DNA of 64,000 nt from an uncultured Acidobacteriota bacterium. GTDB taxonomy: Bacteria > Acidobacteriota > Thermoanaerobaculia > Multivoradales > Multivoraceae. Within the stretch, counting starts at the first letter, position 1. Each line of letters starts with the position of its first letter. Shown in pieces: positions 32,143 to 51,489 of the stretch. The stretch is taken from assembly GCA_963851415.1 (NCBI GenBank), contig CAWKPF010000002.1:4438239-4502238 (forward strand), written 5' to 3'. The translations under genes were made by a program, and so were the position numbers. The notes beneath the pieces were generated by a model. That model ran no database searches. It was not told the DNA's origin and was given only the letters and a program-made list of their open reading frames with translations.

Positions 32143-33074
32143 CGGAGAACGACGACTCGATCGCTCCTCTGTCGGAACGACGGCGGCCCAGATTGGCCCT
32201 CGCCGTCGGGCTGGCGCTGGCCTTCGGTACCCTGATCTTCGATCTCTCGCGTCCCCTGGGGGTGGCCTCCGCGGTCCCCTACGTGGCGGTCGTGCTGGCG
32301 GGACTGGTCAGTCAGAAGCGTTCGCTGGTGGTGGCGTTCGGAGTCTTGACGACGGTGCTGACGCTGGTCGGATTCTTCGCCGTGCCGATCGGCTCCGGAG
32401 CGACCGTGACACCGAGGGTGGAGTTCCTCAATCGGGGTCTCACGATCTTCGCCATCTGGGCCGTGACCGCGACCGCGGTCGGTTACCTCGGATCTCAGAA
32501 GCGTTGGGAGGAGCGCTTGTCGAACCTGGCGATCGAGGACCCGCTCACCGGCCTGGCCAACCGGCGCTACATTCTCGAGCAACTGGGGCGCCAGATGAAG
32601 CTGGTCGACCGCTACGAGCAGACGTTCTCGGTGGCGCTCTTCGACATCGATCGTTTCAAGGAGTTCAACGACCGCTACGGGCATCAGGTGGGAGACGAGG
32701 TGCTGCGCATGGTGGCACGACTCGGTGAGGGCTGTATTCGCGACAGTGACGAGATCGCCCGCTTCGGGGGCGAGGAGTTCCTCGTCGTCTGCCCCAGCAC
32801 GACGCTCGAACAGGCGGTCAAGGTGGGGGAGCGCGTGCGGCGAGAGATCGAGAACTTCGAGCTGTGGCGAGACGGTCTCCGCCTGAGTGTCACGGTCTCG
32901 GTCGGCGTCGCTCAATGCCCGGAGCAGCCTGTACCGATCGAACAGGTGCTGCACAACGCCGACGAGGCGCTGTACAAAGCCAAGAAAGACGGGCGCAACA
33001 AGGTCGTCGCGTTCGATCCGTTGGTGGTCTCGGGCACCCTGGAGATTCCCGAGGGGGGCGAGGCCGCGGGCTAG
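32139..33074 (+). CDS. Membrane-anchored diguanylate cyclase (GGDEF domain; GGEEF active site with RxxD I-site).
   Basis: The GTG start overlaps the upstream stop (GTGA). An N-terminal hydrophobic region spans about 4 TM helices. GGDEF-domain blocks LTGLANRRY, ALFDIDRFKEFNDRYGHQVGD and RDSDEIARFGGEEF. Confidence 0.85.
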   Translation: MTENDDSIAPLSERRRPRLALAVGLALAFGTLIFDLSRPLGVASAVPYVAVVLAGLVSQKRSLVVAFGVLTTVLTLVGFFAVPIGSGATVTPRVEFLNRGLTIFAIWAVTATAVGYLGSQKRWEERLSNLAIEDPLTGLANRRYILEQLGRQMKLVDRYEQTFSVALFDIDRFKEFNDRYGHQVGDEVLRMVARLGEGCIRDSDEIARFGGEEFLVVCPSTTLEQAVKVGERVRREIENFELWRDGLRLSVTVSVGVAQCPEQPVPIEQVLHNADEALYKAKKDGRNKVVAFDPLVVSGTLEIPEGGEAAG

Positions 33075-33118: not shown

Positions 33119-34252
33119 TCAGTCAGCGGAGGTCTCGGCTCCCTGTGCAGACTGCTCTGCGGCCTCCGGAAGATCACTCGTCGCGATGACGAAGTCTCGA
33201 TCGGTGGTCGACTCCGCGCTCAGCGGCAGGTTCGTCACGACCAGGCTGGCCCCGGGGTGGAGCAACGAGAAGAGCTGGTTTCCGATCTCCGGGTCGGCGC
33301 GGATTCTCCCGACGATCTCGGTGTGATAGCTCTCATGGGTCGCACCGGTGGGCAAAGCCACCGCCATCCACAACGGCATGGGCACGTCGGGCGCGAAGGG
33401 ATTGGGCTCGTCGGAGGTGCCCGCGAGAACGGTGGACACGCCGGCGGGCAGTGGTCTCTCCGGGTCCTCGATCTGCAGGGGCACCTGGCCGATCAGGACC
33501 CCACCTCGGTAGATGTGAGCTCGCTGATCGGCGCCGCTGACCACGATTCCGACGGGTCCCTCCGGGGCGACCTCCGGATTCCAGACCACTTCGGCTTCTC
33601 TCTCTCCCGCGCTCTCCCCTTGTTCCAGGCCCTGCAGCGTGGCGGTCGGCAACACCAGGCCGGAATGGGCGATCACCGTAGGGGCCGAGATCTCGTCCGC
33701 GATCACGACCGTACCGCCATCGTCGGTCACTTCGAAGAGCAGGGCCGAGAACGGCTCGGGCATCCGCACGCAGCCGTGCGAGGCCGGGAAGCCCGGGAGT
33801 TTGCCGGCGTGCAGTGCGATACCGGTCCAGGTCAGCCGCTGCATGTTGGGCATGGCCGCGCCGGGAAAGAGATTCGAGACGTGAGTGCGATCCTTCTCCA
33901 GGATGTGGAACACCCCGGTCGGAGTCTCGTGCCCGGTCTTGCCGGTCGAGACTGTCGAGATTCCGATCCGAATGCCATTGCGGTAGACCTTGGCCAACTG
34001 GTCGGGAATGCTCACCAGAATGACCACGGGGCCGCTCGGTGAGATCTGCGGATACCAGCGATACTCCCCCGGACTGAGAGGGAGCGCCGTCTCGTCCAGC
34101 TCCCGCATCAGGTTCTGTTCCTCGGATTGGCGCTCGCCGTCGGTGAGCGTGGACTCTGCGCTGCCGAGGCTCGGATCCTCATCCGGACCGGCGCAGGCGG
34201 TCAGGATGAGCCCGAGGCAGACTACGAGAGGGGCGAATTTCGAATGACGCAT
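33119..34252 (-). CDS. L,D-transpeptidase (YkuD) domain lipoprotein.
   Basis: Lipobox LTAC. YkuD catalytic block ALHAGKLPGFPASHGCVRM. 377 aa. Confidence 0.8.
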   Translation of the reverse strand: MRHSKFAPLVVCLGLILTACAGPDEDPSLGSAESTLTDGERQSEEQNLMRELDETALPLSPGEYRWYPQISPSGPVVILVSIPDQLAKVYRNGIRIGISTVSTGKTGHETPTGVFHILEKDRTHVSNLFPGAAMPNMQRLTWTGIALHAGKLPGFPASHGCVRMPEPFSALLFEVTDDGGTVVIADEISAPTVIAHSGLVLPTATLQGLEQGESAGEREAEVVWNPEVAPEGPVGIVVSGADQRAHIYRGGVLIGQVPLQIEDPERPLPAGVSTVLAGTSDEPNPFAPDVPMPLWMAVALPTGATHESYHTEIVGRIRADPEIGNQLFSLLHPGASLVVTNLPLSAESTTDRDFVIATSDLPEAAEQSAQGAETSAD

Positions 34253-34327
34253 GACATGTCTCCATCTGATTCCGCTGCGAGGCTCACCGTCTGGGACGGA
34301 CCTGAGGCGGCTCGAAGATTCTGTGAA

Positions 34328-35545
34328 CTATTCCGCGTAGATCTGAAGGTCGGTGCCGACTCGGTCGGCGATCTGAAGAGTGGTCGCGAGGTCCGGATGA
34401 CGCACGATGACCCAGCCATCGGAGAGCAACGTGGCCCGCCAGTTGCGCCGGGGAGCACCGGGGGGGAGGAGATCCACCGACACGATGTGATCGCCGCACT
34501 GGGCCATCAGTCGTTCGAGACCTTCGATGCGTTGGATTCGCCCGCGCCCGTGAGCGCGTTTGAAGATCACGGCGGCATTGTAGCGTCGGTCCACGCTCTG
34601 GCCGAAGCTGCCGTGACAAACCGCTTCAGCCCAGCCACGAAAGACGTCGATATCGCAGCCGTAGTTCATCAACTCGACCGAGCGGGCTCCTGGCGGCCGG
34701 CCTCCGATCTCCCCGAAGACGGCTTCCCCGTCGGGGGTGAGGAACCACTCCATGTGCGTGAAGCCGGTGTCGAGCCCGAGGACGTCGAGAACCTTGCGTC
34801 CGAGATCGAGTCCCGGAGCCAGCTTCGGGTCGCCGATCCTGCGTAGGGTCACGGTTTGCGGCGAGATCCACTCGACGTGGCGCGCGATGATCGGCTTGGG
34901 GCGGTACCACGCGATGTTGTCGTAGAGCACCCGACCGTTGGCGCAGATGGTGTCGTAGGTGTACTCCTCCCCCTCGACGAACTCCTCGACGGAGACAGTC
35001 GGTACGTGGCGCAGCAGGGGGAGCAACGTTTCGAGCTCTGCCGCGTCGTCGACCCGGTACGTATCGGCCGATCCGGCGCCTGCGATCGGCTTGATCACCA
35101 GGGGGTAGCCGATGCGCTCCGCGGCCTCACGGCAGCCTTTGGCCGTGCTCTCGCGCGAATGACGGGGGGTGCGGAGACCGGCCTCGTCCAGCAGCTGTTT
35201 CATGCGCTCTTTGTCACGAAGCGGCACGGTCTGCTCGACACTCATCCCCGGTAGACCGGTGGCCTCACGAATCCGTGCGGCGAGCAACATGGTGGGCTCC
35301 CAGAGGGATTCCACCCGGTCGAGGGAGACGCGCCGTGCGTACTCGGTGACCTGATGGACCACGGCCCGCTCGTCGAACAGCGAAGGAACCTGGATGTGGT
35401 CGGAGAGTGCGTGGCGCGTCATCTCGGGCAGGGCGCCTGCGGGCTGGTCCGAAAGTCCGACCACCTCTGCACCGACCTCGGTCAGGCCGCGGGCGAAGAA
35501 AGGCATCTCGGCGGGGAACCCGGGGGCGATCATCAGTACACGCAC
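34328..35545 (-). CDS. ATP-grasp fold carboxylate-amine ligase (L-amino-acid-ligase/ATP-grasp_4-like), paralog 1.
   Basis: GTG start 7 nt after the upstream stop, with gaaggag SD. ATP-grasp-like blocks GYPLVIKPIAGAGSADTYRVDD, VSVEEFVEGEEYTYDT and HMEWFLTPDGEAVFGEIGGRPPG. The N-terminus MRVLMIAPGFP is shared with paralogs 2 and 3. Confidence 0.82.
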   Translation of the reverse strand: MRVLMIAPGFPAEMPFFARGLTEVGAEVVGLSDQPAGALPEMTRHALSDHIQVPSLFDERAVVHQVTEYARRVSLDRVESLWEPTMLLAARIREATGLPGMSVEQTVPLRDKERMKQLLDEAGLRTPRHSRESTAKGCREAAERIGYPLVIKPIAGAGSADTYRVDDAAELETLLPLLRHVPTVSVEEFVEGEEYTYDTICANGRVLYDNIAWYRPKPIIARHVEWISPQTVTLRRIGDPKLAPGLDLGRKVLDVLGLDTGFTHMEWFLTPDGEAVFGEIGGRPPGARSVELMNYGCDIDVFRGWAEAVCHGSFGQSVDRRYNAAVIFKRAHGRGRIQRIEGLERLMAQCGDHIVSVDLLPPGAPRRNWRATLLSDGWVIVRHPDLATTLQIADRVGTDLQIYAE

Positions 35546-35552
35546 GGGGTGA

Positions 35553-36776
35553 CTACTCCTTCAGCTCGACGCGTACGGTCGAAACGATCGTTCGCAGGGC
35601 GCTCTCCACTACGGCGGTCTCGGGGTGGCGGACGATCACGTAGCCCTCTCCCTCGTATCCCGAGGCCGCGGGTTGTCCCTCGCGAGGCAGTTGGGCCTGA
35701 ACCACCAGGTCGCCGACCGCTCGTTGGACCTCTTCGAGGCCGTGTACCGCGACCACTCGTCCCTTGCCCTGGCCGCGAAGAAAGGCCGCACCGGCAGAGT
35801 AGCGCCGCTCGGGAGGATCGAAGGTGTGGTGGATCATCAGCTGCGCCCAGGCCCGATAGAAGTCGAGATCGTGGGCGTAGGAGATCAACGTGGTGATCTG
35901 GGCGCCGGGCGGTCGCGCTGCGACCTCCGAGATCGCGAGGCTGCCGTCGGGGCGCCGGAACCACTCGAGGTGGGTCAGTCCGGTTTCGAGGCCGAGAGCC
36001 GATACGGCGGCGAAGGCGGCCTCGCGAATGTCGTCGTAGCGCGGATCGTCGACCTCCCGAGGCAGCAGCACACACCACTGGATCCACGGATTGCGCAGGA
36101 CGTCCAGGGGGGTCGGCTGGTAGTGCGTGATCGAATGCCAGACCGGAGTCCCTCCGATCGAGACCGAGTCGAACGATTGCTCGTCGCCGAGCACGAACTC
36201 TTCGAGCAGAAGCGGCTGCTGCTGGGAGGGGCGAGTGAAGCCGAGGACTTCGCGCAGCGCGCTCTCGTGGTCGACGCGGTAGGTGCCGGTGGCTCCGGCG
36301 CCGGCCGGGGGCTTCAGCACCAGGGGAAAGCCCGTTGCCCGGGCGAATTCGAGCGCCTCCTCGTCGTTCCGGGCAAGGCGATGGCGGGCACAGGGGATTC
36401 CGGCTCCACGCAGGACGTCCTTCATCCTCGATTTGTCGCGAAAGTTGAGCGCCGTCTCGGTGTCCATTCCCGGAATTCGGAGCTCGTCGCGGGCTCGGGC
36501 CAGGGCGACCTGCATGTGCTCCAGGACTCCGAACAGGCGGTCGAGGCCCCCCAACTGCTGGGCTAGCCCCGACGCGCCCTGCACGAGCTGCTGCCAGTCG
36601 AGCGCGTTGTCGACCCGCCAGTGCCCGTCCAGCGTCTCGCGCAGATCTGCGGGCAGCCGCTCGAGTGGCTCCTGGGTGATCAGCCCCAGGCGCACGCCGT
36701 CCAGCCCAGCCGCAGCGCGGACGAAGCGTTGCGTGGTCGGAGGCAGGTAGGGTGCAACGAAGGCGACGTGGATCAA
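35553..36776 (-). CDS. ATP-grasp fold carboxylate-amine ligase, paralog 2.
   Basis: TTG start (MIHVAFVAPYLP). Blocks GFPLVLKPPAGAGATGTYRVDH, LLEEFVLGDEQSFDS and HLEWFRRPDGSLAISEVAARPPG. It is co-directional with, and immediately upstream of, paralog 1. Confidence 0.8.
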   Translation of the reverse strand: MIHVAFVAPYLPPTTQRFVRAAAGLDGVRLGLITQEPLERLPADLRETLDGHWRVDNALDWQQLVQGASGLAQQLGGLDRLFGVLEHMQVALARARDELRIPGMDTETALNFRDKSRMKDVLRGAGIPCARHRLARNDEEALEFARATGFPLVLKPPAGAGATGTYRVDHESALREVLGFTRPSQQQPLLLEEFVLGDEQSFDSVSIGGTPVWHSITHYQPTPLDVLRNPWIQWCVLLPREVDDPRYDDIREAAFAAVSALGLETGLTHLEWFRRPDGSLAISEVAARPPGAQITTLISYAHDLDFYRAWAQLMIHHTFDPPERRYSAGAAFLRGQGKGRVVAVHGLEEVQRAVGDLVVQAQLPREGQPAASGYEGEGYVIVRHPETAVVESALRTIVSTVRVELKE

Positions 36777-36893
36777 GAGTCCAGTCTACCTTGCGGGCTC
36801 GCTGCGTTGCGAGAGGGCATACGCTGTGAGCGGAATCGGTCCGCGCCGGTCGTCGCGCAGGTATGCTCGGGCTGATCGGAGGTTCTCGAGCTC

Positions 36894-38351
36894 ATGAAGA
36901 TCTGTCTGCTCTGCGCCGAGCTCTCACCCTTCGCCAAGACCGGAGGACTGGGGGACGCCGTCGCCGGCCTGGCTCGCTTTCTTCACGAAAAGAGAGAGCT
37001 GGGTGTGGAGCTGCGCGTATTCCTGCCCGACTACGCCTCGGGCAAGGTAGACCGGGATCGCGTCGTCCCGGTCGACTACCTGCAGGGCCTCTCGACGGTG
37101 ATGGGAGGGCGCCGCTTCTCCTACGATGTCCACACGACGAATCTTCCCGACACCGATCTTCCGGTCTATCTGATCGACTGTCCGGAACTCTACGGTCGTG
37201 CCGGAATCTACGACGATCGGGGCGACGAGCATCAGCGCTTCGCGCTGCTCTCGCGGGCGGCCATCGAATCGTGCCAGGGCATGGGATTCGGCCCCGATGT
37301 GTTCCATTGCCACGACTGGCACGCCGGACTGACGCCGCTCTATCTGCGCACCGAGTACGCGTGGGATCGGCTCTTCTCCTCGAGTGCGACCCTGGTGACG
37401 ATTCACAACATCGCCTATCAGGGTACGTTTCCCGCTCGTGCCGTGGCCGAGGTGGGTCTCGCCCGCTCCGCCGGAGCTCTGCACCAGGAGGACCTGGCTC
37501 ACGGGCGGTTCAGCTTCCTGACTACGGCCATCCTCTATGCCGACTGGCTCTCCACGGTGAGCCGTTCCCACGCCTGGGAGATCCAGACCCCCGAGCTCGG
37601 TTTCGGTCTCGACGCCCTGCTTCGCGAGCGCTCCGATCACCTCTCGGGAATCGTCAACGGGGTCGACTATTCGGAGTGGGATCCTCGCACCGACGAAGTG
37701 ATCGAAGCGCGATACTCGCCGGAGGACCTTTCGGGGAAGGAGACCAATCGTCGCCGGCTGCTCGAGAAGCTCAGGCTCGACTGGGATCCTCATGCTCCGG
37801 TGCTCTCGGTGGTCTCGCGCCTGGTGGCGCAGAAGGGCCTCGATGTTCTGGTCTCTCCCCTACAGGATGCGCTCGGTCATCGCAACGTTCGAGTCGTGGT
37901 GCTGGGCAGCGGCGAGCCGGAGCTGGAGCAGGTGTTCCAGGCGCTCGATCAGCGCTTCCCCGGGCGGATGCGCTTCTATCGGGGCTTCGACAACGACCTG
38001 GCACACGAGATCTACGCCGGGTCCGATGTGTTCCTGATGCCTTCCCGTTACGAGCCGTGTGGCCTGAGCCAGCTCTACAGTCTGCGTTATGGAACCCCCC
38101 CCCTCGTGCACCGCACGGGAGGACTGGCAGATACCGTGGAGCTCTACGATTCGGCCCACGGCACCGGCACCGGATTCGTGTTCGATCATCTCGACGATCG
38201 TGCCGTGCGTTGGGCTCTGGGCTACGCCCTCGACAGCTACGCCGATCGCGAGGGCTGGCAGCGGCTGATGCGCAACGGAATGGCGAAGGACTTCTCCTGG
38301 GCGGTGCAAGGGGAGCGCTACCTCGAGCTCTACCGCTCCCTGGCGAGGTAA
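36894..38351 (+). CDS. glgA: Glycogen synthase (ADP-glucose-dependent starch/glycogen synthase).
   Basis: MKICLLCAELSPFAKTGGLGDAVAGLARFL N-terminus (KTGGL motif). C-terminal GT-B blocks GSDVFLMPSRYEPCGLSQLYSLRYGTPPLVHRTGGLADTV. 485 aa. Confidence 0.92.
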   Translation: MKICLLCAELSPFAKTGGLGDAVAGLARFLHEKRELGVELRVFLPDYASGKVDRDRVVPVDYLQGLSTVMGGRRFSYDVHTTNLPDTDLPVYLIDCPELYGRAGIYDDRGDEHQRFALLSRAAIESCQGMGFGPDVFHCHDWHAGLTPLYLRTEYAWDRLFSSSATLVTIHNIAYQGTFPARAVAEVGLARSAGALHQEDLAHGRFSFLTTAILYADWLSTVSRSHAWEIQTPELGFGLDALLRERSDHLSGIVNGVDYSEWDPRTDEVIEARYSPEDLSGKETNRRRLLEKLRLDWDPHAPVLSVVSRLVAQKGLDVLVSPLQDALGHRNVRVVVLGSGEPELEQVFQALDQRFPGRMRFYRGFDNDLAHEIYAGSDVFLMPSRYEPCGLSQLYSLRYGTPPLVHRTGGLADTVELYDSAHGTGTGFVFDHLDDRAVRWALGYALDSYADREGWQRLMRNGMAKDFSWAVQGERYLELYRSLAR

Positions 38352-38372
38352 CCCGGCCTCTGGCTCGCTGGT

Positions 38373-39101
38373 TCAGGCCAGCTCGTCGAGGTACTTCGGG
38401 AGCATCGCGCGCCAGGTCATCCAGTCGTGGTCCCACTCGGGTCCCCACGGATCGACCCGATTGGGGATTCCCTTGGCGCCCAGCACCGAAGCGGCCCGCC
38501 ACGACTGTCCGGGATCTTCCCACCGACCCTCGCCCGTGGGAAACACCACGAAACGCTCGCGGAGCTTCGAGAGTTGCTCGCTCTCCCCGAGGTCGGGAAG
38601 GTAGTGTAGCGGCGAGGAGAAGTAGAAGTCCTGGTTCATTTCTCCGTCGAGCCAGCGGGTGAGATCGTACGTCCCGCTCATGCAGATCGCCGTCTTGAAC
38701 GCGTCGGGATGCCGGCAGATCGCGGCGAGTGCGTTGAAGGCACCGATCGAGGCGCCGGCGGTCACGATCTCGATCGCGTCCGCTTCGCAATCTCGGCGGA
38801 TCGCCGGCACCAGCTCTTCGTAGATGAAGCGATCGAACTGGTTCTGCACCCAGGATCGGTGATGGGCGCTGCCCTCTCCGGAGCTCCAGGCCCGGCCTGC
38901 GACGCTGTCGCAGGAGTAGAGCTTGATGCGACCGGCCTCGATCAGCGGCGTCAGGACCTTCACCATCAGGAAACGCTCGCACTCCTCCGCATCGCCTCCT
39001 GCGGTGGGGAAGAGCAGGACGGGTGTGCCGTACGTGCCCCAGCGTGCAATGGCGATCTGTTGTCGCAAGTGCTGCGAGTACCAGTCGGTCTTGAGTTTCA
39101 T
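38373..39101 (-). CDS. Putative esterase (alpha/beta hydrolase, esterase-D/Fes-like PF00756-type).
   Basis: ATG at 39101 lies 14 nt after the upstream stop. Sequence MKLKTDWYSQ...TPVLLFPTAGGDAEE...VTAGASIGAFNALAAICRHPDAF is typical of this family. The ORF-track extension to 39236 overlaps the upstream gene and is rejected. Confidence 0.72.
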   Translation of the reverse strand: MKLKTDWYSQHLRQQIAIARWGTYGTPVLLFPTAGGDAEECERFLMVKVLTPLIEAGRIKLYSCDSVAGRAWSSGEGSAHHRSWVQNQFDRFIYEELVPAIRRDCEADAIEIVTAGASIGAFNALAAICRHPDAFKTAICMSGTYDLTRWLDGEMNQDFYFSSPLHYLPDLGESEQLSKLRERFVVFPTGEGRWEDPGQSWRAASVLGAKGIPNRVDPWGPEWDHDWMTWRAMLPKYLDELA

Positions 39102-39114
39102 CTCGTCTTCCTCG

Positions 39115-40359
39115 TCAGGCGCTCGGGTCGCCTTCTTCCTCTCGCCACAGTTGGATCTGGCTCCAGAAGTGGTCGACGAAGTGATCCACCTCGTGCTCCG
39201 GGAAGAGTGACTCGACCTTGAGGCGCACCGCCTCACGAGCGCGGTCGGAGCCGAAGAAATCGTAGGAGACCTCGTCGAGGTTGCCGAGATGGGTCGCGCA
39301 GAATTCGTCGAAGCGATCGACGTCGAAGTGCTTCCTGGCGATCGCGGCGTAGCCGGCGAGTTTCTCGCGGTAGGGCACGTCGCGAGCAGCGATCTCGTAG
39401 TACGGCGCCCAGTCCAGGTTCTGGCGCATCGGTCGATCGGTGACCGCGCAAAACAGGCTCCAGCGAATCAGCGACTTCACGAGCCAGGGGAAGTGGTAGT
39501 GCAGGCTCGTGACCTGGGAATCGGGGCACGCGTTGGCGAAGTCGATGGGGTGGAACTCGCCGTCCTGGCGCAGGGACTCGCACGAGTTGAAGTCCCAGCC
39601 GAAGAAGCTGTTGATGGTCAGCGTCATCTCTGCCAGCAGGGCCTCCTCCTCGGCGCTCAAGAAATCGTGCGCCACCTCGTAGCGTGCGTGCAGGGGAGCG
39701 CTCGGCTCGTAGCGCACCGCTCTTACCTGCGGCCCTACACCGATCGCTCGCACGAAGAGGTCGAAGGGGTCGATGGCCTCCTGGAAGTGAAGGAGTCGAA
39801 TCTCGCTTTCGTCGTAGCGTTGGCGTAGCTGCTCTTCGTTCTCGATGCGCTCGACCCCGACCCAGGCACCACCGTCGTACGGCTTCATGAACAGGGGGTA
39901 GCCGAGCTCCTTGCCGATCACTCCGAGGTCGAAGAGCCGTGCATACTGGCGCAACGTGGACTCGAGGTCGACACTCGGCTCGTAGGATTTGGGAGGCACC
40001 AGCCAGGTATCGGGTACTGGCATGCCGAGCCTCATCATGGCGCAGTAGGTGGTCTGCTTCTCCATGGACTGGATCGACCAGGGATTGTTGAGCACGTAGA
40101 GATCGTCCATCAGGATCGACTTCTTGATCCACTCACGGCTGGTCTTGTACCAGTGGGTGAGCCGGTCCAGGACCACGTCGTAGCGACAGGGCTGTCGAAG
40201 TGAGAAGGGCTCGATCGAGACCCGCTCGACTTCGATCTTCACGGTGTCGCCCGCCATCGGAACGGCGAGGTCGAGGCGGGATACGATCTCTTCGTAGCAG
40301 ATCGGCCAGCACAGGTCGGCACCGAGAGACAATCCGATGCGGCGTTGGATCTCAGCCAT
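39115..40359 (-). CDS. Divergent ATP-grasp-like ligase (RimK/GshB-like core), 414 aa.
   Basis: ATG preceded by ggggtagagg. The central block ELGYPLFMKPYDGGAWVGVERIENEEQLRQRYD resembles the ATP-grasp nucleotide-binding region. The protein is richer in W, F, Y and K than its neighbours. It is unrelated in sequence to the three ~405-aa paralogs. Confidence 0.65.
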   Translation of the reverse strand: MAEIQRRIGLSLGADLCWPICYEEIVSRLDLAVPMAGDTVKIEVERVSIEPFSLRQPCRYDVVLDRLTHWYKTSREWIKKSILMDDLYVLNNPWSIQSMEKQTTYCAMMRLGMPVPDTWLVPPKSYEPSVDLESTLRQYARLFDLGVIGKELGYPLFMKPYDGGAWVGVERIENEEQLRQRYDESEIRLLHFQEAIDPFDLFVRAIGVGPQVRAVRYEPSAPLHARYEVAHDFLSAEEEALLAEMTLTINSFFGWDFNSCESLRQDGEFHPIDFANACPDSQVTSLHYHFPWLVKSLIRWSLFCAVTDRPMRQNLDWAPYYEIAARDVPYREKLAGYAAIARKHFDVDRFDEFCATHLGNLDEVSYDFFGSDRAREAVRLKVESLFPEHEVDHFVDHFWSQIQLWREEEGDPSA

Positions 40360-40402
40360 GACCTCTACCCCTGTTCACGTAGCTCTGGTTTGTTCGTGAC
40401 AT

Positions 40403-41542
40403 CTATTCGTAGACCATCCAGAGCGGCCCCGGGAAGAGCCAGGAGAGTCCCTCGCGCAGTCGATCCCGCCAGTTCTCCCAGTTGTGGCCGTCCCGCGCCT
40501 CGACGTAGCGCACCTCGGCGCCGGTCGATTGCATCAGGGGAAGGAGAGATCGATTCTCGTAGATCAGTGACTCGTAGACACCGCAGCTCATGAAGACCCG
40601 GTCGGCCGGTCGTTGGCCCTCGAGACGGAATCGTCTCATGAATCGCACCACCGGATCGAAGGCCGGGCCTCGGTCATGTCGGAAGCCGACATCGCTGAAG
40701 GCGAAGGAGCCCGACTGCAGGAGCAGCCGAGAGAACGTTCCGGGATGCTCGGAAGCGGCGGCGAGTGCGGCCACCGCGCCGAAGCTCGCCCCCATCAACG
40801 CACGCGCGGAGGCGTTCTGCTTGATCGGTAGCTTCGCTTCGAGCTCCGGCAGGAGCTCCTCTGCCAGGAATCGACCGTGTCGAGGGTCTGCGCCGTACTC
40901 GATCAGCCGATCGGGAGACTGGATCAAGGCCACCACGGGTGGCTCGATCTCGAGTCGTTCGATCAGGTTGTCGAGCACTGTCTGGAGGTTGGCGTAGCGC
41001 AGGTAGTCCTCTCCATCGTGCACGATCAGGAGCGGATGCCGTCGACGCGGACGATGTCGGGCGGGGAGGTAGAGCTGTACTTCGCGGCGATCGCCGAACA
41101 CGTCGCTGTCGATGGCGAGTCGGGCCATCTCGCCCTTTCGGCTCGTCGGGTCGGGCTGGGTCCAGGTCGGGACCTCGTAGCCTTCTCCATGGAGGACCGA
41201 GTTCGCGCCGAAGGGATCGTGAGCCTTCACCGGGTTGAGGGGATCGCGGATCCAGCGGTGGCGTCGCCCCTTGACGACATCGATCTTGTACTCGATGCGG
41301 GACTGGCGCGGAATCTCGAGCTCGAGCACCCAGAGCTCGCTGTCCCCGACCCTCCGGAAGGCCTGTTCCGACGGCAGTCCGTGGATCCAGTGGCGCAGGA
41401 GCACGCGGTCCGCTTCTCCTCGGTAGACCAGGGTGGCCGTGGTTCCCCGCACCGACGGGAACGTCTCGGTCTCGAGGAGTCGGTCGATCGCCTCGGCGGA
41501 GGGCGACTCGTCGGCCTCGAGCTCGCGGAGGATCTCGGTCAT
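40403..41542 (-). CDS. Enterochelin-esterase (Fes)-like esterase with N-terminal Ig/E-set-like domain.
   Basis: The ATG overlaps the upstream stop (ATGA). An N-terminal beta-domain (ATLVYRGEADRVLLRHWIHGL...EYKIDVV) is followed by an esterase core (HPLLIVHDGEDY..., LMGASFGAVAALAAASEHPGTF). Confidence 0.75.
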   Translation of the reverse strand: MTEILRELEADESPSAEAIDRLLETETFPSVRGTTATLVYRGEADRVLLRHWIHGLPSEQAFRRVGDSELWVLELEIPRQSRIEYKIDVVKGRRHRWIRDPLNPVKAHDPFGANSVLHGEGYEVPTWTQPDPTSRKGEMARLAIDSDVFGDRREVQLYLPARHRPRRRHPLLIVHDGEDYLRYANLQTVLDNLIERLEIEPPVVALIQSPDRLIEYGADPRHGRFLAEELLPELEAKLPIKQNASARALMGASFGAVAALAAASEHPGTFSRLLLQSGSFAFSDVGFRHDRGPAFDPVVRFMRRFRLEGQRPADRVFMSCGVYESLIYENRSLLPLMQSTGAEVRYVEARDGHNWENWRDRLREGLSWLFPGPLWMVYE

Positions 41543-42555
41543 CGGCTCGGCCCCTCGTTGCCGGTCCGACTCGCCAGGGTCGGAGCCTCCGGCTCGACGG
41601 ATTCGACTTCGCCGCTCGGCAGCAGCAGATCGACTCCGCCGGCGATCCAGGGACGGGCCGCCCCCGCTTGCGTCTCGATGCGCAACCAGCTCTCCTCGTT
41701 CATTCCGATGCAGCGGCTGGGGGCGAAGCGACGAGAGAGGAGGGACACTCGAGTCCGGTCTTCGAGACGGAGTCGTCGACGGGCGTGGGGAAAGGGTTGG
41801 ATCGCCGGGGCCCGATCCGCGAAGGGAAGTCGGAGGCCGTCGTCGAGCACTTCGGCGTTGCCGGCACCCCAGGGAGGAGAGTCGTGAAACAGCACGATCC
41901 GGGGGGCGAGCACCATCGCGCCGGCCGACACGGCGAGAATCGTCTTCTCGGCCAGGGTTCGCGCGAGCCCGAAGAGTCGCAGTCGGGTCAGCAGCACGGC
42001 GACGTGCCCTCCGGCGATCACCACCGCAGAAGCGTCGGCGAGCCGCGCCTCGATCTCGCGCTGCTCTCGAATCACCGACTCACGCTCCGTGGGCCGGGCC
42101 TGCTCGTCGAACTCCCGTTGCACCGAGCGCACCCGCTCCTGATGGTGACGGTCGAGAGCACGAACGGCCTCGAGCGCATCCTCCAGTTCCCCGGCCAGGA
42201 GATCCGCGCCCTCCGCCTCACCTCGTGGACCGAGCACCTCGAGCTCACGGACCGCGCCGACCGCGTGATCGAGACGGCGTCGGTAGAGCGCCTGCAAACG
42301 TTCGAGGCGTCGTTGGCGCTCCCGGTGGGCCTGGAAGAGATCCGGATCCTCCTCGAAGCAGCGCTCGGCACGGGCGTACAACTCCAGCGGTAGAGTCTGC
42401 GATCCAACGGCAGCGTCGAGCTCGGCCGTTTCGGCCTCGGCCTGGAGCCACCCTGCCGTGATCGCGGCGATCGGGGGGTCGAGCCCCAGCGCCTCGACGT
42501 GGGCGTGTAGTGTCGGCCGCAGCCGCTGGGGTCCCAGCATCACGATGGTGGTCAT
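41539..42555 (-). CDS. Peptidase S51-like (cyanophycinase / dipeptidase E family) protein.
   Basis: Blocks AVVIAGGHVAVLLTRLRLFGL and ILAVSAGAMVLAP resemble the S51 GG(G/N) and nucleophile-Ser regions. 338 aa. The assignment rests on weak motifs only. Confidence 0.55.
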   Translation of the reverse strand: MTTIVMLGPQRLRPTLHAHVEALGLDPPIAAITAGWLQAEAETAELDAAVGSQTLPLELYARAERCFEEDPDLFQAHRERQRRLERLQALYRRRLDHAVGAVRELEVLGPRGEAEGADLLAGELEDALEAVRALDRHHQERVRSVQREFDEQARPTERESVIREQREIEARLADASAVVIAGGHVAVLLTRLRLFGLARTLAEKTILAVSAGAMVLAPRIVLFHDSPPWGAGNAEVLDDGLRLPFADRAPAIQPFPHARRRLRLEDRTRVSLLSRRFAPSRCIGMNEESWLRIETQAGAARPWIAGGVDLLLPSGEVESVEPEAPTLASRTGNEGPSR

Positions 42556-42587
42556 GGCGGCCCTTTATAATGGATTGAGGTCTCACA

Positions 42588-43808
42588 ATGCACGTACTGT
42601 TCGTCGAGCCGGCGTTTCCTGCCAACCAGGGCCGCTTCGTTCACGCCCTGGCCGAGATCGGCGCCACGGTCACCGCGATCGGTGAGGCGCCGGCGGGCGC
42701 TCTTCCCGGTGCCCTGAAGAGTCGGCTGCACGGGTACGAACAGGTCGGATCGGTGTGCGACGAGGGCGCGCTGCTCGATGCCGTTCGCCGAATCCAGGGA
42801 CGGGGGTGGGTCGACCGGCTGGAGGCCACTGTCGAGGCACACGTGCTGCCGACCGCGCGCGTGCGCGAGGCGACGGGTATTCCCGGCACCTCGGTGCACA
42901 CGGCTTATCTGTGTCGTGACAAACCAGCCATGAAGGAGGCGCTGCGTGAAGCCGGGGTCGCGTGTGCCGCCTCGACCGGGGTAGCGAGTCTCGACGAGGC
43001 CCACAGCTTCGCCGAGCGGGTCGGCTTTCCCCTGATCGTCAAGCCCAGGGGCTCGGCGGGAGCGGCCGGAACCGATCGGGTCGACGACCTGGACCAGTTG
43101 GACACCTCCCTGGCTTCTCACGGAGTCGGCCGGGGAGGAGAGGCGGCGCTCGAGGAGTTCGTCGAAGGCCACGAGGCGTTCTTCGACACGTTGACCGTCA
43201 ATGGAGAGATTCGCCATACCTTCATCAGTCACTACTACCCCGGTGTGCTCGAGGCGATGCGCACACGCTGGATCTCTCCCTACCTGATCACCACGAATCG
43301 CGCCGACGCCGACACCTATGCAGAAGTCCACGAGATGGGGCGACTCGTCAACGAAGCGCTGGGGATCCGCACCTCTGCCACCCACATGGAGTGGTTCTTC
43401 GGACCGAAAGGTCTCCGTTTCTCCGAGATCGGCTGTCGTCCCCCCGGTGTCCTGACCTGGGACCTCTACTCGGCCGCCAACGACTTCGACCTCTACCGGG
43501 AGTGGGCGCTGGCGGTCACCCAGGGGCGCTGCGAGGCACGGTTGTCCCGCCGGTACTCCGCGGCGTTGCTGAACTTTCGGCCGGATCGGGACGGTCGAAT
43601 CGTCGGCTACGAAGGGTTGGACTGGCTCGAGCACGAGCTCGGCGAGTGGGTCATCGACAGCCGCTTTCCGTCTCCGGGCACTCCGACCCAGCCGGTCGAG
43701 GCGGGATACATGGCCAACGCCTGGGTGCGGGTGCGCCATCCCGACTACGATCGGCTGCGCGAACTGCTCGACGAAGCCGGTCGACGGGTGCAGGTCAGGG
43801 CTGGCTGA
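42588..43808 (+). CDS. ATP-grasp fold carboxylate-amine ligase, paralog 3.
   Basis: ATG preceded by gagg, with a TATAAT-like box 20 nt upstream. MHVLFVEPAFP N-terminus. Blocks GFPLIVKPRGSAGAAGTDRVDD, LEEFVEGHEAFFDT and HMEWFFGPKGLRFSEIGCRPPG. Confidence 0.82.
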   Translation: MHVLFVEPAFPANQGRFVHALAEIGATVTAIGEAPAGALPGALKSRLHGYEQVGSVCDEGALLDAVRRIQGRGWVDRLEATVEAHVLPTARVREATGIPGTSVHTAYLCRDKPAMKEALREAGVACAASTGVASLDEAHSFAERVGFPLIVKPRGSAGAAGTDRVDDLDQLDTSLASHGVGRGGEAALEEFVEGHEAFFDTLTVNGEIRHTFISHYYPGVLEAMRTRWISPYLITTNRADADTYAEVHEMGRLVNEALGIRTSATHMEWFFGPKGLRFSEIGCRPPGVLTWDLYSAANDFDLYREWALAVTQGRCEARLSRRYSAALLNFRPDRDGRIVGYEGLDWLEHELGEWVIDSRFPSPGTPTQPVEAGYMANAWVRVRHPDYDRLRELLDEAGRRVQVRAG

Positions 43809-43951
43809 GCACCCTCTCGGTTTCTCCTCAGATCCCTCGGGGGAACCGGTGGCGCCGAAGCAGCGGTCGGCGCGGTACACTGCGGCAGTCGGCAAGCCGT
43901 GCAACCGCCAGTACTCGGGGCCTTTGCGGTCCGTTGGCAGAGGGAGTGCCC

Positions 43952-45223
43952 GTGAAAGACGTCGCGACCATCATCATGGGCGGAGGCCAGGGAGCCCGGC
44001 TCTTTCCACTGACTCGAGATCGCGCCAAGCCCGCCGTGCCGGTGGCGGGGCGGGCGAGGCTGATCGACGTTCCGCTCTCGAACTGCATCAACTCGGGTCT
44101 GACCCGGATCGCGGTGCTGACGCAGTTCAATTCGGCATCGTTGAACCGGCACGTGTCGCGCACCTACAACTTCGGGAGCCTTCTTCCCTGGGGCGTGGAG
44201 GTGCTGGCCGCGGAGCTCACCAGCGAGAATCCGAACTGGTTCCAGGGCACGGCCGATGCGGTGCGGCGCAACATGAAGCACGTGATCGACAGCGAGACCC
44301 GGCTGGTCCTGATTCTGGCCGGTGATCATCTCTACCGAATGGACTACCGCCCGTTCCTGGAACGACACCAGAGCAGCGGCGCCGACATCACGATCTCGGT
44401 GTGTCCGGTGAGTGCGGAGCACGCGTCGAGCTTCGGCCTGGTGCACTGTGACGACGAGGGGATCATCACGCGATTCGCCGAGAAGCCGACCGGTGACGAG
44501 TTGGAGGCGATGCGCGTCGACCCGTCGGCTCCGCTGGCCGGGGGAGCACCGATCGGCGCGCCCTATCTGGCTTCGATGGGAATCTATGTCTTCAACCCCG
44601 AGGTCCTCGTCGACCTGTTGAACTCCAATCCCGGCCAGCACGACTTCGGCAAGGAGCTGATCCCCGAAGCCCTCCACGCGCATCGGGTCGCCGTACACAC
44701 CTTCAAGGGGTACTGGGAAGACATCGGCACGATCGGCGCCTTCTATCGTGCCAACCTGGCGATCGGATTCGACGGCTACTCGCTCTACGATCCGGACTTC
44801 CCGCTCTACACCCGGCCGCGCTACCTCTCGCCCACCACGATGAACGACGCCCGGGTCGACGCCTCGTTGATCGCGGAAGGCAGCCGCATCGGCTCGGCGC
44901 GGATTCACGCTTCGGTCGTCGGAATTCGCTCACTCATCGGCGACGGGGTCGTTCTCGACGGCGCGCTGGTGATGGGCAACGACTCCTACGAGACGGCGGC
45001 CGAAGCGACTCGCCACCGGATGCAGAGGCTGCCGCCGATGGGAATCGGAGACGGCACGATGGTGCGCCGTGCGATTCTCGACAAAGGGGTTCGGATCGGA
45101 CGCAACGTCCGCATCGTCAACGTGGACGGTGTCGAAGAGCGGGATGCGTCGAACTACTACATCCGCAACGGCATCGTCATCGTTCCCAAGCTCGCAGTGA
45201 TCCCCGACGATACGGTGATCTGA
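43952..45223 (+). CDS. glgC: Glucose-1-phosphate adenylyltransferase.
   Basis: GTG at 43952 preceded by gggag. IIMGGGQGARLFPLTRDRAKPAVPVAGRARLIDVPLSNCINSG is a classic GlgC N-terminus, and the C-terminus has a left-handed beta-helix. The ORF-track start at 42962 is a spurious extension that overlaps ATP-grasp paralog 3. Confidence 0.88.
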   Translation: MKDVATIIMGGGQGARLFPLTRDRAKPAVPVAGRARLIDVPLSNCINSGLTRIAVLTQFNSASLNRHVSRTYNFGSLLPWGVEVLAAELTSENPNWFQGTADAVRRNMKHVIDSETRLVLILAGDHLYRMDYRPFLERHQSSGADITISVCPVSAEHASSFGLVHCDDEGIITRFAEKPTGDELEAMRVDPSAPLAGGAPIGAPYLASMGIYVFNPEVLVDLLNSNPGQHDFGKELIPEALHAHRVAVHTFKGYWEDIGTIGAFYRANLAIGFDGYSLYDPDFPLYTRPRYLSPTTMNDARVDASLIAEGSRIGSARIHASVVGIRSLIGDGVVLDGALVMGNDSYETAAEATRHRMQRLPPMGIGDGTMVRRAILDKGVRIGRNVRIVNVDGVEERDASNYYIRNGIVIVPKLAVIPDDTVI

Positions 45224-45245: not shown

Positions 45246-47630
45246 TCAGCGTTCGATTCGCTCGAATCCCGTCAAGACCATCGACTGCCACGGACCGACC
45301 TTCAACTCGATGCGCTCGGCCGAAGCCAGGTGCCGCCGGCGATCGACTCGATCGGTGAAGCGAATCGTGTCGCCCGGCTTCCAGCGCTCGGCGATTCGTC
45401 CGCGCAGGGCACGCATCGCCGAGGGAGCGAAGCGCATCTCGATCGGGGCAGTTGCGTTGTTGAACAGCACGACGGTGAGCTCTTCGCGGTCGCCGTTCAG
45501 AAACGCGATCACGTCGAACGGATTGTGACCCGCGGAGTCCTCGAGATCGAGAGGTAGGAAACGTGCCGCGTCGCAAAAGACATCCCGTCGTGCGAGCAGC
45601 GGCTGGATCTGATCGAGGTGGCGCTGGATCAACTCGGGGACCGGCTGCTCGGCCAGACGCGGCCGGGAGAACTCCATTCCGTACTGCTCGTAGAGGCCCT
45701 CGATCTGACCGTGGCCGAACAGGGGCAAGCCGGGCAGGGTCGCCATCAGGGTCGCGACCCCGAAATAGCGATCGCCGCGGCCGAACTGATCTGCCGCGCT
45801 GCGCTCATCCGGGTTGCTCATGAAGTTCACGTAACGCCTCAGGATCTCGGGATCGACCTTCCAGGTGTCGCGCAGCAGGGTTTGCATCTTGTGGTTGTCC
45901 TGCTCGCGCATCAGGTGCATGAAGGCGCTGTTGTAGACCCGGTGCATTCGGAGATCGCGAACGAAGAAGGCCTCGAGCAACCAGAACGCCTCGGCCAGCA
46001 GAAGACAGTCTGGCGCCTCGCTCGCGGCCCGGTCCACGACATCGCTCCAGAACTCCGCGGGCATCGCCCGGTCGAAGGCCTGGTCGTCGAGCCCGTGCTC
46101 GCTGCGAGAGGGGATGTCGCCACCGGTTCCCGGCGCCGGGAACCAGAGTCTCCGGTAGTGCTGTCGTGTCAGAGTCATCGCCGCGTCGAAGCGGAGGATG
46201 GGAAAGCGCCGCGCGACCTCGAGGATCTTCGAAGTCATGGCTTCGCGCACCGCGGGCTGGAGGTAGTCGAGTTGGGCGGTGTCGTTCCAGGGCGTACTGG
46301 TGCCGTCGTTGCCGTGGTAGACGAAGCGCTCCTCGCCGGTGCGCCGATCGACCCGTTTGAACACCACGGCGGCGTCGCTGCGATCGTAGTAGTGATCCTC
46401 GAGAAAGATGCCGACGTCGGGATCGCCGGAGAGATCGGGTCCGTCGAATGTATAGCCCGGAAAGGGAGAGCGGTCGATGCTGAGGAATCGCTCGGGATGG
46501 TCGCGCAGCCACTGCGAGTCGACGCCCATGTGGTTCGGGACGACGTCGACACCGAGCCGGATCCCCCGCGCGAGAGCTCGTTCCTGGAGGTCCTCGATGG
46601 CCTCGTCGCCGCCGAGCCCCTGGTCGATTCGGTAGTCGAAGACCGAGTAGGCGGAGGCTTCGGGCGTGCGGCTCCCGGAGAGCTCCTTGATGCGCGCCGA
46701 AGCGGGGCTCCGCTGCCACACTCCGATCAGCCACAGGCCGGTGAGGCCGAGGGCGGCGAGTCGATCGAGCTCCTGGTCTGGAACCTCCGACAGGCGCTCG
46801 AGGGGGCGTCCCGCCTGTTCGGAGAGCTGGTAGAGCCAAACCCGGGTGTGCTTGGCTCCGAGGACGAGGTGCCGCATCCATTCGGCCTCGGAGCTCGGTT
46901 GAGGTGGGGGAGGGGCGAGGCCTTCGAGACTGGGCAGCTCCAGCGGTCCGGGGCCGGGTGCCGGTCGGGGTCGCTCCTCGGCCAGCAGGTCGAGTGCCTT
47001 CAGCGTGGCCAGTTGCTCGCTCTCGTCGAGCTCTGGCCACTGCGTGAGGATGAAGGTCAGCTGGCGGTTGAGAGCACTCTCCGGCGTCACCGCCTCGGGT
47101 TGCCGGGCCCACTGAGCCCAGGGCTCGGGTGCGGTCTGCGCGGAGTCCTCGGTCTTTGCACCGATCGCTTCGATGAGCTGCAGGTAGTGGCTCGAGCTCT
47201 CGAGCTGACGGTCGTCGAAGAGCTCACGCAGGGAGTCGAGTGCCGGGTTGCGATTGAGCACGTAGAGCACCAGCAACGGGCTCAGTGCCAGGGGGCCGAG
47301 CTCGTCGGGCCGGTGGTCGAACTCGCGCTCCAGTTCGCCGAGCACCTCCTGCACGGTCTCCTCCCCGAGGCGGTCTCGAAGCTGCTCGCCGAGTGACCGT
47401 TCCGCGTCGGGCGCGGTCTCCAGGCTGCGCGTGAGCTTCGCGCTGAGCAGCTCCTGCAGCAGGAGGAGCGCATTGAGCTCTCCCGCCCGAACCGGCTCGG
47501 CTCCGCCTTCGCGACTCCTCGACTCGTTCAGCTGGTGAGCCAGGGAGCGCAGTTGGGCCGCATCGAGCTCACTCTCCGGGAGGTCGATCCCGTAGTGCTC
47601 GAGGGCCGCGCGGCGGAGCAGGCGAATCAC
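45246..47630 (-). CDS. GH13 (alpha-amylase family) alpha-glucan-active enzyme with ~300-aa N-terminal extension.
   Basis: The GTG start overlaps the glgP stop (GTGA). GH13 conserved regions DVVPNHMG (I), ILRFDAAMTL (II), LLAEAFW (III) and VNFMSNPDE (IV). 794 aa. Confidence 0.82.
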   Translation of the reverse strand: MIRLLRRAALEHYGIDLPESELDAAQLRSLAHQLNESRSREGGAEPVRAGELNALLLLQELLSAKLTRSLETAPDAERSLGEQLRDRLGEETVQEVLGELEREFDHRPDELGPLALSPLLVLYVLNRNPALDSLRELFDDRQLESSSHYLQLIEAIGAKTEDSAQTAPEPWAQWARQPEAVTPESALNRQLTFILTQWPELDESEQLATLKALDLLAEERPRPAPGPGPLELPSLEGLAPPPPQPSSEAEWMRHLVLGAKHTRVWLYQLSEQAGRPLERLSEVPDQELDRLAALGLTGLWLIGVWQRSPASARIKELSGSRTPEASAYSVFDYRIDQGLGGDEAIEDLQERALARGIRLGVDVVPNHMGVDSQWLRDHPERFLSIDRSPFPGYTFDGPDLSGDPDVGIFLEDHYYDRSDAAVVFKRVDRRTGEERFVYHGNDGTSTPWNDTAQLDYLQPAVREAMTSKILEVARRFPILRFDAAMTLTRQHYRRLWFPAPGTGGDIPSRSEHGLDDQAFDRAMPAEFWSDVVDRAASEAPDCLLLAEAFWLLEAFFVRDLRMHRVYNSAFMHLMREQDNHKMQTLLRDTWKVDPEILRRYVNFMSNPDERSAADQFGRGDRYFGVATLMATLPGLPLFGHGQIEGLYEQYGMEFSRPRLAEQPVPELIQRHLDQIQPLLARRDVFCDAARFLPLDLEDSAGHNPFDVIAFLNGDREELTVVLFNNATAPIEMRFAPSAMRALRGRIAERWKPGDTIRFTDRVDRRRHLASAERIELKVGPWQSMVLTGFERIER

Positions 47631-49825: not shown

Positions 49826-49923
49826 GGATCTCTCCCGGACGCGTACCTGGAGGAAGGGATGGGCGTCGGATGTTTCTGGAGGGGGCCCCCGCGGAGGTCA
49901 CACTGGCCTATCATCCCCCGGTG

Positions 49924-51485
<1,562 letters not shown>

Positions 51486-51489
<4 letters not shown>

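Follow-up and report, generated by a model that had tools for sequence, protein, structure and literature searches.

An ATP-grasp ligase that founds a very large unnamed family is encoded in a conserved module with two esterases and, usually, an S51-like hydrolase

The ATP-grasp enzymes LysX and ArgX attach an amino acid to the terminal Glu of LysW, a carrier protein encoded nearby, from which a hydrolase later releases it. RimK, which acts on ribosomal protein S6, is linked to cyclic di-GMP (c-di-GMP) control. Some ATP-grasp enzymes, such as VanA, form esters, and the arginine of the RimK/LysX clade is typical of GshB too. In cyanophycin clusters, an ATP-grasp synthetase is accompanied by an S51 cyanophycinase and the AstE/AspA-type dipeptidase CphZ, and some of these clusters carry S9-peptidase or cocaine-esterase-like alpha/beta hydrolases (PMC9974463, PMC10206079). 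In the case of RimK, the C-terminal Glu of a protein is the site to which residues are added, and a role has been described for the conserved arginine, R189 (PMC10375531). We analysed a 64,000-nucleotide (nt) stretch of DNA from an uncultured Acidobacteriota bacterium (contig CAWKPF010000002.1, positions 4,438,239 to 4,502,238; the whole stretch is hereafter called the window). The subject of this study is the open reading frame (ORF) at 39115-40359 on its minus strand, which encodes a protein of 414 amino acids (aa), hereafter the ligase. An initial annotation, made from the sequence without database searches, had described it as a divergent ATP-grasp-like protein of atypical composition flanked by two esterases.

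The family founded by the ligase is very large and unnamed. Among 5.8 billion proteins searched, its homologues formed more than 7,400 clusters at 90% identity, of which the top 120 were 66-76% identical to the ligase and were almost all labelled hypothetical. Another library, clustered at 50% identity, contained a single representative of the core family, and 1,578 of its representatives matched at E<=0.001. At least 474 loci were confirmed (one genome per species, 63-75% identity). Carriers among the loci listed were Acidobacteriota (Thermoanaerobaculia, Holophagae), Myxococcota, Planctomycetota, Eisenbacteria, Binatia, several Proteobacteria, and Actinomycetota. When 8 million full texts were searched by keyword, no paper on the family or the gene cluster was found; the 2009 Iyer/Aravind amidoligase survey, where an earlier description would be likeliest, lies outside the coverage of these searches. 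The novelty is at the level of a family within a known kind of enzyme, and the conserved module around the gene is apparently undescribed.

The ORF is genuine, and its product is an ATP-grasp enzyme as judged from its predicted structure. With 33 family members as input, AlphaFold2 gave a confident model (predicted local distance difference test score, pLDDT, 84.9; predicted TM-score, pTM, 0.87) that has the three domains of the ATP-grasp fold: pre-ATP-grasp, central, and C-terminal catalytic. When the model was searched with Foldseek, 417 solved structures matched at E<=0.001, and all of the 50 best were ATP-grasp enzymes. The best matches were ArgX, RimK, Ddl, and LysX (E about 1e-10, target TM-score about 0.65), with ArgX 3vpc at the top (E 3.9e-10, target TM-score 0.65); VanA was also present. 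The alignments span about 290 residues, with a query TM-score of 0.45-0.48 as against the target TM-score of about 0.65. The family profile, compared with solved structures, gave its longest alignments with LysX 3vpd (58-219) and RimK 5zct/4iwx (54-210). These findings bear out the ATP-grasp fold with RimK/LysX-like features proposed in the initial annotation. Glutathionylspermidine synthase, circularly permuted ATP-grasp, and tubulin-tyrosine ligase, also raised there, gave no profile match at E<=0.01 and were absent from the 50 best Foldseek matches.

In relatives with as little as 29% identity, residues K101, K159, Q193, R204, E261, D273, and N276 are fully or almost fully conserved. G163-G164 of the Gly-rich loop and Q193-E194 of the Q/E-E hinge also show little or no variation. 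K101, K159, Q193-E194, and R204 align with K100, K141, Q179-E180, and R189 of RimK, and R204 is invariant in all ligase subfamilies examined. The conserved arginine and the identity of the closest relatives together indicate a peptide carboxylate as the likely type of substrate. The nucleotide-binding block quoted in the initial annotation, ELGYPLFMKPYDGGAWVGVERIENEEQL, was located at residues 151-178; the block at residues 150-178 is the sole stretch matched by Pfam Dala_Dala_lig_C and by PDB sequences. N258, E261, D273, N276, P279, and D280 show complete or near-complete conservation in subfamilies of 29-59% identity and map to predicted Mg/catalytic strands 257-265 and 268-275 of the model. 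The motif I-D273-F-A-N276-x-x-P-D, read from sequence, is invariant in all subfamilies. It has the form D-x-x-N, and the spacing of acid and Asn thus appears to be longer by one residue than in the E-x-N typical of ATP-grasp enzymes. The helices of the C-terminal extension run from 290 to 409 in the model and are kept in distant subfamilies. Direct reading of the sequences revealed no signal-peptide-like N-terminus among the cluster proteins, indicating that the system is cytoplasmic. The ligase is thus predicted to be a catalytically intact cytoplasmic ATP-grasp enzyme of the RimK/LysX/GshB branch. By analogy with that branch, it would be a carboxylate-amine ligase acting via an acyl-phosphate intermediate.

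A Pfam search of the ligase gave only PF07478 Dala_Dala_lig_C, at 20.6 bits (cut-off 24), over residues 149-182. Among NCBIfam models, those for D-Ala-D-Ala ligase and LysX scored about 20 bits against cut-offs of 243-495 (TIGR01205, 21.2 bits, cut-off 245.65; LysX_arch TIGR02144, 18.7 bits, cut-off 275.6). TIGR00768 rimK_fam did not match at E<=0.01, nor did the GshB models of Pfam and NCBIfam. Ten distant relatives of the ligase likewise had no Pfam domain. The ligase was correctly placed outside the family of three ~405-aa ATP-grasp paralogs encoded in the window. These are 33-38% identical to one another over their full length; overlap of the ligase with them is limited to an ATP-binding block of 29-36 aa (BLASTP E 0.001-0.04; hhalign 36 columns, probability 60%).

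Conservation of the neighbourhood was assessed by tblastn of the window proteins against 80 species loci, of which 67 have at least 2.5 kb of upstream DNA, 74 have at least 0.9 kb of downstream DNA, and 42 have at least 7 kb on both sides (fully flanked loci). The conserved operon order is S51-like hydrolase, Fes-like esterase, ligase, small esterase. The Fes-like esterase gene was directly upstream of the ligase gene in 45/67 loci, an S51-like gene was nearby in 49/67, and the small esterase gene was directly downstream in 50/74. Corresponding values for the fully flanked loci were 31/42 for the Fes-like esterase, 30/42 for the S51-like hydrolase, and 29/42 for the small esterase. At least one L-amino-acid-ligase-type paralog was present in 26 of these 42 loci, and a glycogen synthase within 8 kb of the ligase in 17, from several phyla. 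The junction of ligase and small esterase was most often a 4-nt ATGA overlap (27/55 loci). Myxococcota, Eisenbacteria, and Binatia have a single co-directional operon in the order glgA, L-amino-acid-ligase-type paralog, S51, Fes-like esterase, ligase, small esterase. The ligase, the Fes-like esterase, and the small esterase, usually with the S51-like hydrolase, form a fixed genetic module.

The small esterase gene is followed in 12/80 loci (L013:10131-12044, L016:10018-11979, and 10 more, from Myxococcota, Binatia, and Eisenbacteria) by a gene for a protein of about 650 aa that combines a GCS2 carboxylate-amine ligase domain with two CBS domains. An AstE/AspA-family (CphZ-like) gene is directly after the GCS2-CBS gene in 3 loci and about 2.5 kb further on in L075 (the set is L013:12048-13001, L041, L066, and L075). 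No small conserved ORF that could encode a LysW-like carrier or precursor peptide was found between the Fes-like gene and the ligase gene.

The association is also found in more distant relatives. In a sister subfamily from soil metagenomes (44-48% identity; L095-L167, e.g. L140:6126-6869 and L104 up to 6877), the order is Fes-like esterase, small esterase, ligase. Among the 38 sister loci with enough upstream DNA, the Fes-like gene was found in 26, the small esterase gene in 27, and both in 22. At L086:6348-7988, a 546-aa fusion of both esterase types is encoded directly upstream of the ligase. A ligase relative of 35% identity directly follows a 486-aa S51 peptidase and has a convergent GDSL esterase. 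Esterase and S51 neighbours in these deeper relatives indicate that the ligase/serine-hydrolase association is old and robust. No L-amino-acid-ligase-type paralog was found near the sister-subfamily ligases, and only one sister locus (L121) had a glgA-like match (26% identity). The view taken in the initial annotation, that the ligase acts with two esterases, is supported by the neighbourhood counts, the sister subfamily, and the fusion. The two esterases are indeed conserved partners; the S51 peptidase, GlgA, and the three paralogs had been missed.

The Fes-like esterase has an unusual feature at its C-terminus. The window protein ends in ...LSWLFPGPLWMVYE-COOH, and the terminal Glu (...VYE) is found in 51/56 complete Fes-like ORFs of loci L001-L084; 5 truncated ORFs have the same tail. 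Among the exceptions, one orthologue has a terminal Asp and five lack the motif (L024, L037, L050, L052, L065). All other cluster proteins have variable C-termini. The last ten codons of the tail vary synonymously (GAG/GAA 32/19, TAC/TAT 38/13, all four Gly codons used), which indicates that selection acts on the tail peptide and its exact end. An S51 gene was directly upstream of 47/47 YE-tailed genes that had at least 1 kb of upstream DNA, as against 0/2 assessable tail-less genes. In the sister subfamily, it is the small esterase, encoded directly before the ligase, that carries a conserved tail, ...AHHLPRF[C/V/T/S] (Cys in 29/41), and the fused double esterase of L086 retains this tail at its free end. 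No covariation of tail loss with ligase residues was found among the 4 exceptions available, and no conserved tail was found upstream of the ligase in loci that lack the Fes-like gene or in the P0213-type subfamily.

We tentatively favour a model in which the ligase modifies the C-terminal Glu of the Fes-like esterase and the S51-like hydrolase reverses the modification; we consider it possible, and hold it with less than even confidence. The carboxylate of the C-terminal glutamate of the esterase encoded upstream (...PLWMVYE-COOH) would be activated by the ligase and receive an amine or an amino acid, in the manner of LysX and ArgX with LysW and of RimK with ribosomal protein S6; the adduct would be taken off by the S51-like hydrolase, a protein of glutamine-amidotransferase fold. 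The esterase would then bear a reversible tag at its C-terminus or serve as a carrier-protein tether open to extension by the other ligases. We favour this model because the closest relatives of the ligase act on protein C-termini. A protein C-terminus is at least as likely a substrate as the small molecule proposed in the initial annotation. A wider version, in which the tail Glu would be charged, possibly extended by the three L-amino-acid-ligase-type ligases, and cleared by the S51-like hydrolase in a widespread protein-tail modification or carrier system tied to glycogen synthase, is rather doubtful.

The comparison with RimK shows both parallels and differences. The fold is shared; the gene upstream of the ligase encodes a protein with a near-invariant terminal Glu; and RimK, in the Pseudomonas RimA-RimB-RimK operon, is likewise encoded beside hydrolases. 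However, RimK has about 300 aa (280-300 aa in its family, with no extra domain) as against 414 aa and a 120-aa helical domain in the ligase. Identity in structural alignments is about 15%, and RimK has E-x-N where the ligase has D-x-x-N. RimK acts on S6, whereas the candidate substrate here is an esterase and the partners are alpha/beta hydrolases and an S51-like protein. The logic of LysX and ArgX would fit the combination of ligase, ...VYE tail, and S51-like hydrolase; however, the cluster has no LysW-like ORF and none of the kinase, reductase, and aminotransferase genes of that pathway, and the putative carrier is a 379-aa enzyme in place of LysW.

Several points weigh against the tail model. 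The tail is only a candidate substrate, proposed from conservation and by analogy, and it could instead help the esterase to dock or to fold. The tail of the sister subfamily ends in Cys, Val, Thr, or Ser and not in Glu; should it be a substrate, the alpha-carboxylate is all that the two tails could share. The ligases that accompany the five tail-less orthologues show no compensating changes, in a very small sample, and only two genes make up the negative class of the S51 correlation. In Foldseek, D-Ala-D-Ala ligases, whose substrates are free amino acids, score almost as well as RimK and LysX; the ligase stays below the curated cut-off of all RimK and LysX models; and its 120-aa helical domain is missing from both enzymes. 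The small esterase, the three paralogous ligases, and GlgA are left unexplained by the model.

In a reading that we consider fairly unlikely, the ligase would act on free substrates and, with the paralogs (in some lineages with GCS2-CBS), build a non-ribosomal oligo- or poly-amino-acid, either a cyanophycin-like cytoplasmic reserve or a small peptide; the S51 protein and the alpha/beta hydrolases would degrade it, and glgA would reflect joint regulation of carbon and nitrogen reserves. It accounts for four ATP-grasp ligases and three hydrolases being kept together, for the linkage of GlgA and GlgC to the cluster, and for the GCS2+CBS and AstE/AspA-family genes after the small esterase. The paralogs resemble the L-amino-acid ligases RizA and BL00235. 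The mix of ATP-grasp ligases, S51-family hydrolase, alpha/beta hydrolases and, in some loci, AstE/AspA-family proteins also parallels cyanophycin clusters (PMC9974463, PMC10206079). However, the architecture of CphA (N domain, ATP-grasp, and Mur-ligase-like domain) was not found in the cluster with Pfam or NCBIfam, and in the paralogs the NCBIfam models for cyanophycin synthetase cover only about 90 residues. The S51-like profile did not retrieve cyanophycinase at E<=1 and matched PdxT and peptidase E weakly; cyanophycinase is not detectably closer to the S51-like protein than PdxT or PepE. The two esterases, the most constant partners here, are not a feature of cyanophycin clusters. The paralogs are missing from 16 of the 42 fully flanked loci and from the vicinity of the sister subfamily, the Fes-like tail and its S51 coupling are left unexplained, and no such polymer is reported in the literature searched.

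The other alternatives assign the ligase to glucan, thiol, or cell-wall metabolism. Esterification of hydroxyls of glycogen or another alpha-glucan with acyl or aminoacyl groups, to be removed by the two esterases, is improbable. The true GlgA near 17 of the 42 fully flanked loci, the co-directional operon in Myxococcota, Eisenbacteria, and Binatia, the high aromatic content and many invariant Trp of the ligase, the CE1 carbohydrate esterases among relatives of both esterases, and VanA among the fold matches are consistent with it. However, the N-domain of the Fes-like esterase never matches CBM48, most loci lack GlgA (the one glgA-like match of the sister loci has 26% identity), the S51 peptidase has no role, and the conserved arginine and closest relatives indicate a peptide carboxylate. 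Still more improbable is a GshB-like ligase that, with a GCS2 ligase of gamma-Glu-Cys type, makes or recycles a glutathione-like thiol, with the esterase-D-like enzymes as thioesterases. Several S-formylglutathione hydrolases among the structural neighbours of the small esterase, the GCS2-family gene after it, the arginine common to the ligase and the RimK/LysX clade, and the Cys at the end of the sister-subfamily tail would agree with this. However, GCS2 occurs in only 12/80 loci, GshB models fail to match the ligase, and the Fes-like tail, S51, and GlgA are unexplained. We give hardly any credence to a recently acquired foreign gene or a variant of the housekeeping cell-wall D-Ala-D-Ala ligase with accidental esterase adjacency. 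The ligase gene has the lowest G+C content (GC) in the window, its only Pfam and NCBIfam matches include D-Ala-D-Ala ligase models, and a YkuD L,D-transpeptidase gene is 5 kb away; however, codon usage is native (see below), the D-Ala-D-Ala ligase matches span 34-88 residues at about 20 bits (NCBIfam cut-offs 243-495), the neighbourhood is kept in most of the 80 species loci across many phyla, and YkuD is near the cluster in 0/80 loci. Ddl and VanA share the fold; however, similarity to them is limited to the ATP-binding block (residues 97-184 at most), and the gene context is unrelated to cell-wall synthesis. Identity as a cell-wall D-Ala-D-Ala ligase is contradicted by these scores and by the conserved context.

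The low GC was noted correctly in the initial annotation: the ligase gene has a GC of 0.621, the lowest among 33 window genes (mean 0.661, z -2.2). Its product is the richest in W+F+Y (12.6%, rank 33/33) and the lowest in A+G+P+R; the reported richness in Trp, Phe, and Tyr was confirmed, Lys is raised mildly (rank 27/33), and Asn, which had also been named, is not raised (rank 16/33). GC at third codon positions (GC3) is 0.846 (rank 26/33), normal to high. The low GC therefore sits in codon positions 1 and 2 and follows from the amino-acid composition. Aromatic residues are as abundant in the family consensus as in the ligase itself, and many Trp are invariant. Normal GC3 and family-wide aromatic richness give no sign of foreign DNA; foreign origin, to which the atypical composition might have pointed, was rejected. 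The Fes-like gene ends 43 nt before the ligase start, as had been described. The TGA stop of the ligase is followed by the spacer cgaggaagacgag, of 13 nt and not 14, and then by the ATG of the small esterase at 39101; orthologue alignment showed this ATG to be the true start. A GTG-started 287-aa ORF at 38373-39236 overlaps the 3' end of the ligase gene. Many other long ORFs run antisense to or in other frames of real genes, e.g. 36863-38662 (+), 37771-38982 (-), 39233-40132 (-), and 42552-43904 (-); such spurious ORFs are expected at 66% GC.

Table 1. Coordinates in the window of the ligase gene, its predicted elements, and neighbouring genes
Feature	Position	Strand	Evidence or remark
ATP-grasp ligase, 414 aa	39115..40359	-	ATG-started ORF, AlphaFold2 model, Foldseek
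Nucleotide-binding block of ligase, residues 150-178 (GYPLFMK159P; Gly-rich loop DGGAWVGV)	39826..39912	-	Pfam, PDB alignments
Predicted Mg/catalytic strands of ligase, residues 258-280 (N258-S-x-E261 ... I-D273-F-A-N276-A-C-P279-D280)	39520..39588	-	Conservation, model
C-terminal all-helical extension of ligase, residues 290-414, absent from RimK and LysX	39118..39492	-	AlphaFold2 model
Spacer between ligase stop and small-esterase start, 13 nt	39102..39114	-	Shine-Dalgarno-like GAGGA inside
Small esterase, 242 aa, esterase D/FrmB/CE1-like alpha/beta hydrolase, nucleophile G-A-S118-I-G	38373..39101	-	Pfam Esterase E 2e-11
Near-invariant C-terminal tail FPGPLWMVYE-COOH of Fes-like esterase; candidate ligase substrate or docking peptide	40406..40435	-	
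Fes-like esterase, 379 aa, Enterochelin_N-type N-domain and alpha/beta hydrolase (G-A-S253-F-G)	40403..41542	-	Pfam Esterase E 8e-25
S51-like serine hydrolase, 338 aa, class-I glutamine-amidotransferase fold with inserted helical hairpin	41539..42555	-	Pfam Peptidase_S51 E 5e-6
L-amino-acid-ligase-type ATP-grasp paralog AG_div, 406 aa, divergent from operon	42588..43808	+	
L-amino-acid-ligase-type ATP-grasp paralog AG_b, 407 aa	35553..36776	-	PDB sequence matches
L-amino-acid-ligase-type ATP-grasp paralog AG_c, 405 aa	34328..35545	-	
Glycogen synthase GlgA, recurrent neighbour	36894..38351	+	TIGR02095 507.6 bits, cut-off 328
GlgC	43952-45223	+	Glycogen island
GH13-like protein, 794 aa	45246-47630	-	Glycogen island; no NCBIfam match
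Alpha-glucan phosphorylase with DUF3417	47627-49825	-	Glycogen island
MalQ	49870-51489	+	Glycogen island
Lipoprotein-like protein with YkuD L,D-transpeptidase domain, 377 aa, directly downstream of AG_c	33119-34252	-	

The small esterase gave an AlphaFold2 model with pLDDT 94.8, which matched feruloyl esterase (CE1), S-formylglutathione hydrolase, and antigen 85 in Foldseek. Its family has about 7,500 clusters and matches that of the ligase in size and conservation. The best solved match to the profile of the Fes-like family was enterochelin esterase 2b20 (E 1.8e-25). The N-domain matched Enterochelin_N in 26/31 orthologues and never CBM48; a glycogen-binding CBM48 N-domain was thus rejected. 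The S51-like gene overlaps the start of the Fes-like gene by 4 nt. S51-like proteins have an invariant W-S210-A-G-A-M (nucleophile elbow) and P-H257, and PdxT, matched weakly as noted above, is a glutaminase. The S51-like protein has the fold of glutaminases and gamma-glutamyl hydrolases. The best PDB sequence matches of AG_b were the L-amino-acid ligases 4wd3 and 3vot. The ligase-linked glycogen synthases are true GlgA (TIGR02095 508-549 bits, cut-off 328), and the window cluster lies within a glycogen island that comprises GlgA, GlgC, the GH13-like protein, alpha-glucan phosphorylase, and MalQ. PADLOC defence-system models assigned 0 families to all seven cluster proteins.

Only 32 nt (42556-42587) lie between the start codons of the S51-like gene (42555, -) and AG_div (42588, +), which diverge from each other; their promoters must therefore overlap coding sequence. 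A sigma-70 consensus scan revealed no promoter-like site in 34000-44200. A terminator scan revealed one terminator-like site, inside AG_b, fewer than expected by chance.

Other neighbourhoods of the ligase (HEAT-HD-GGDEF, penicillin amidase, asparagine-synthase-like, GH3) were sporadic. In three Acidobacteriota loci (L027:3694-7973, L029:3417-7689, L030:251-4523), the ligase gene has no esterase genes beside it and is behind a trio of HEAT-repeat, HD-domain, and GGDEF genes; the HD-domain and GGDEF genes recall the link of RimK to c-di-GMP. The window has a GGDEF gene at 32139-33074 (+), 6 kb from the cluster. In one Acidobacteriota lineage (L020, L045, L058, L071, L079), the operon is immediately preceded, upstream of its S51 gene, by sufB/sufD and a gene for an Rrf2-family regulator, an arrangement that is probably lineage-specific synteny. 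The one cultured organism found, Paraliomyxa miuraensis, has the small esterase alone and is uninformative.

Given the size of the family, and with no Pfam or NCBIfam model reaching its cut-off and no paper found in the literature searched, the family is among the larger gaps in what is known of ATP-grasp enzymes. The partnership with esterases and an S51-like hydrolase, the ...VYE-COOH tail, and the link to glycogen synthase are concrete, testable leads, which could indicate reversible modification of a protein C-terminus, carrier-tethered peptide synthesis, or a new reserve compound. If the wider tail-modification system were true, it would constitute a new post-translational switch or tethered peptide assembly in the carbon-reserve metabolism of Acidobacteriota, Myxococcota, Planctomycetota, and others.

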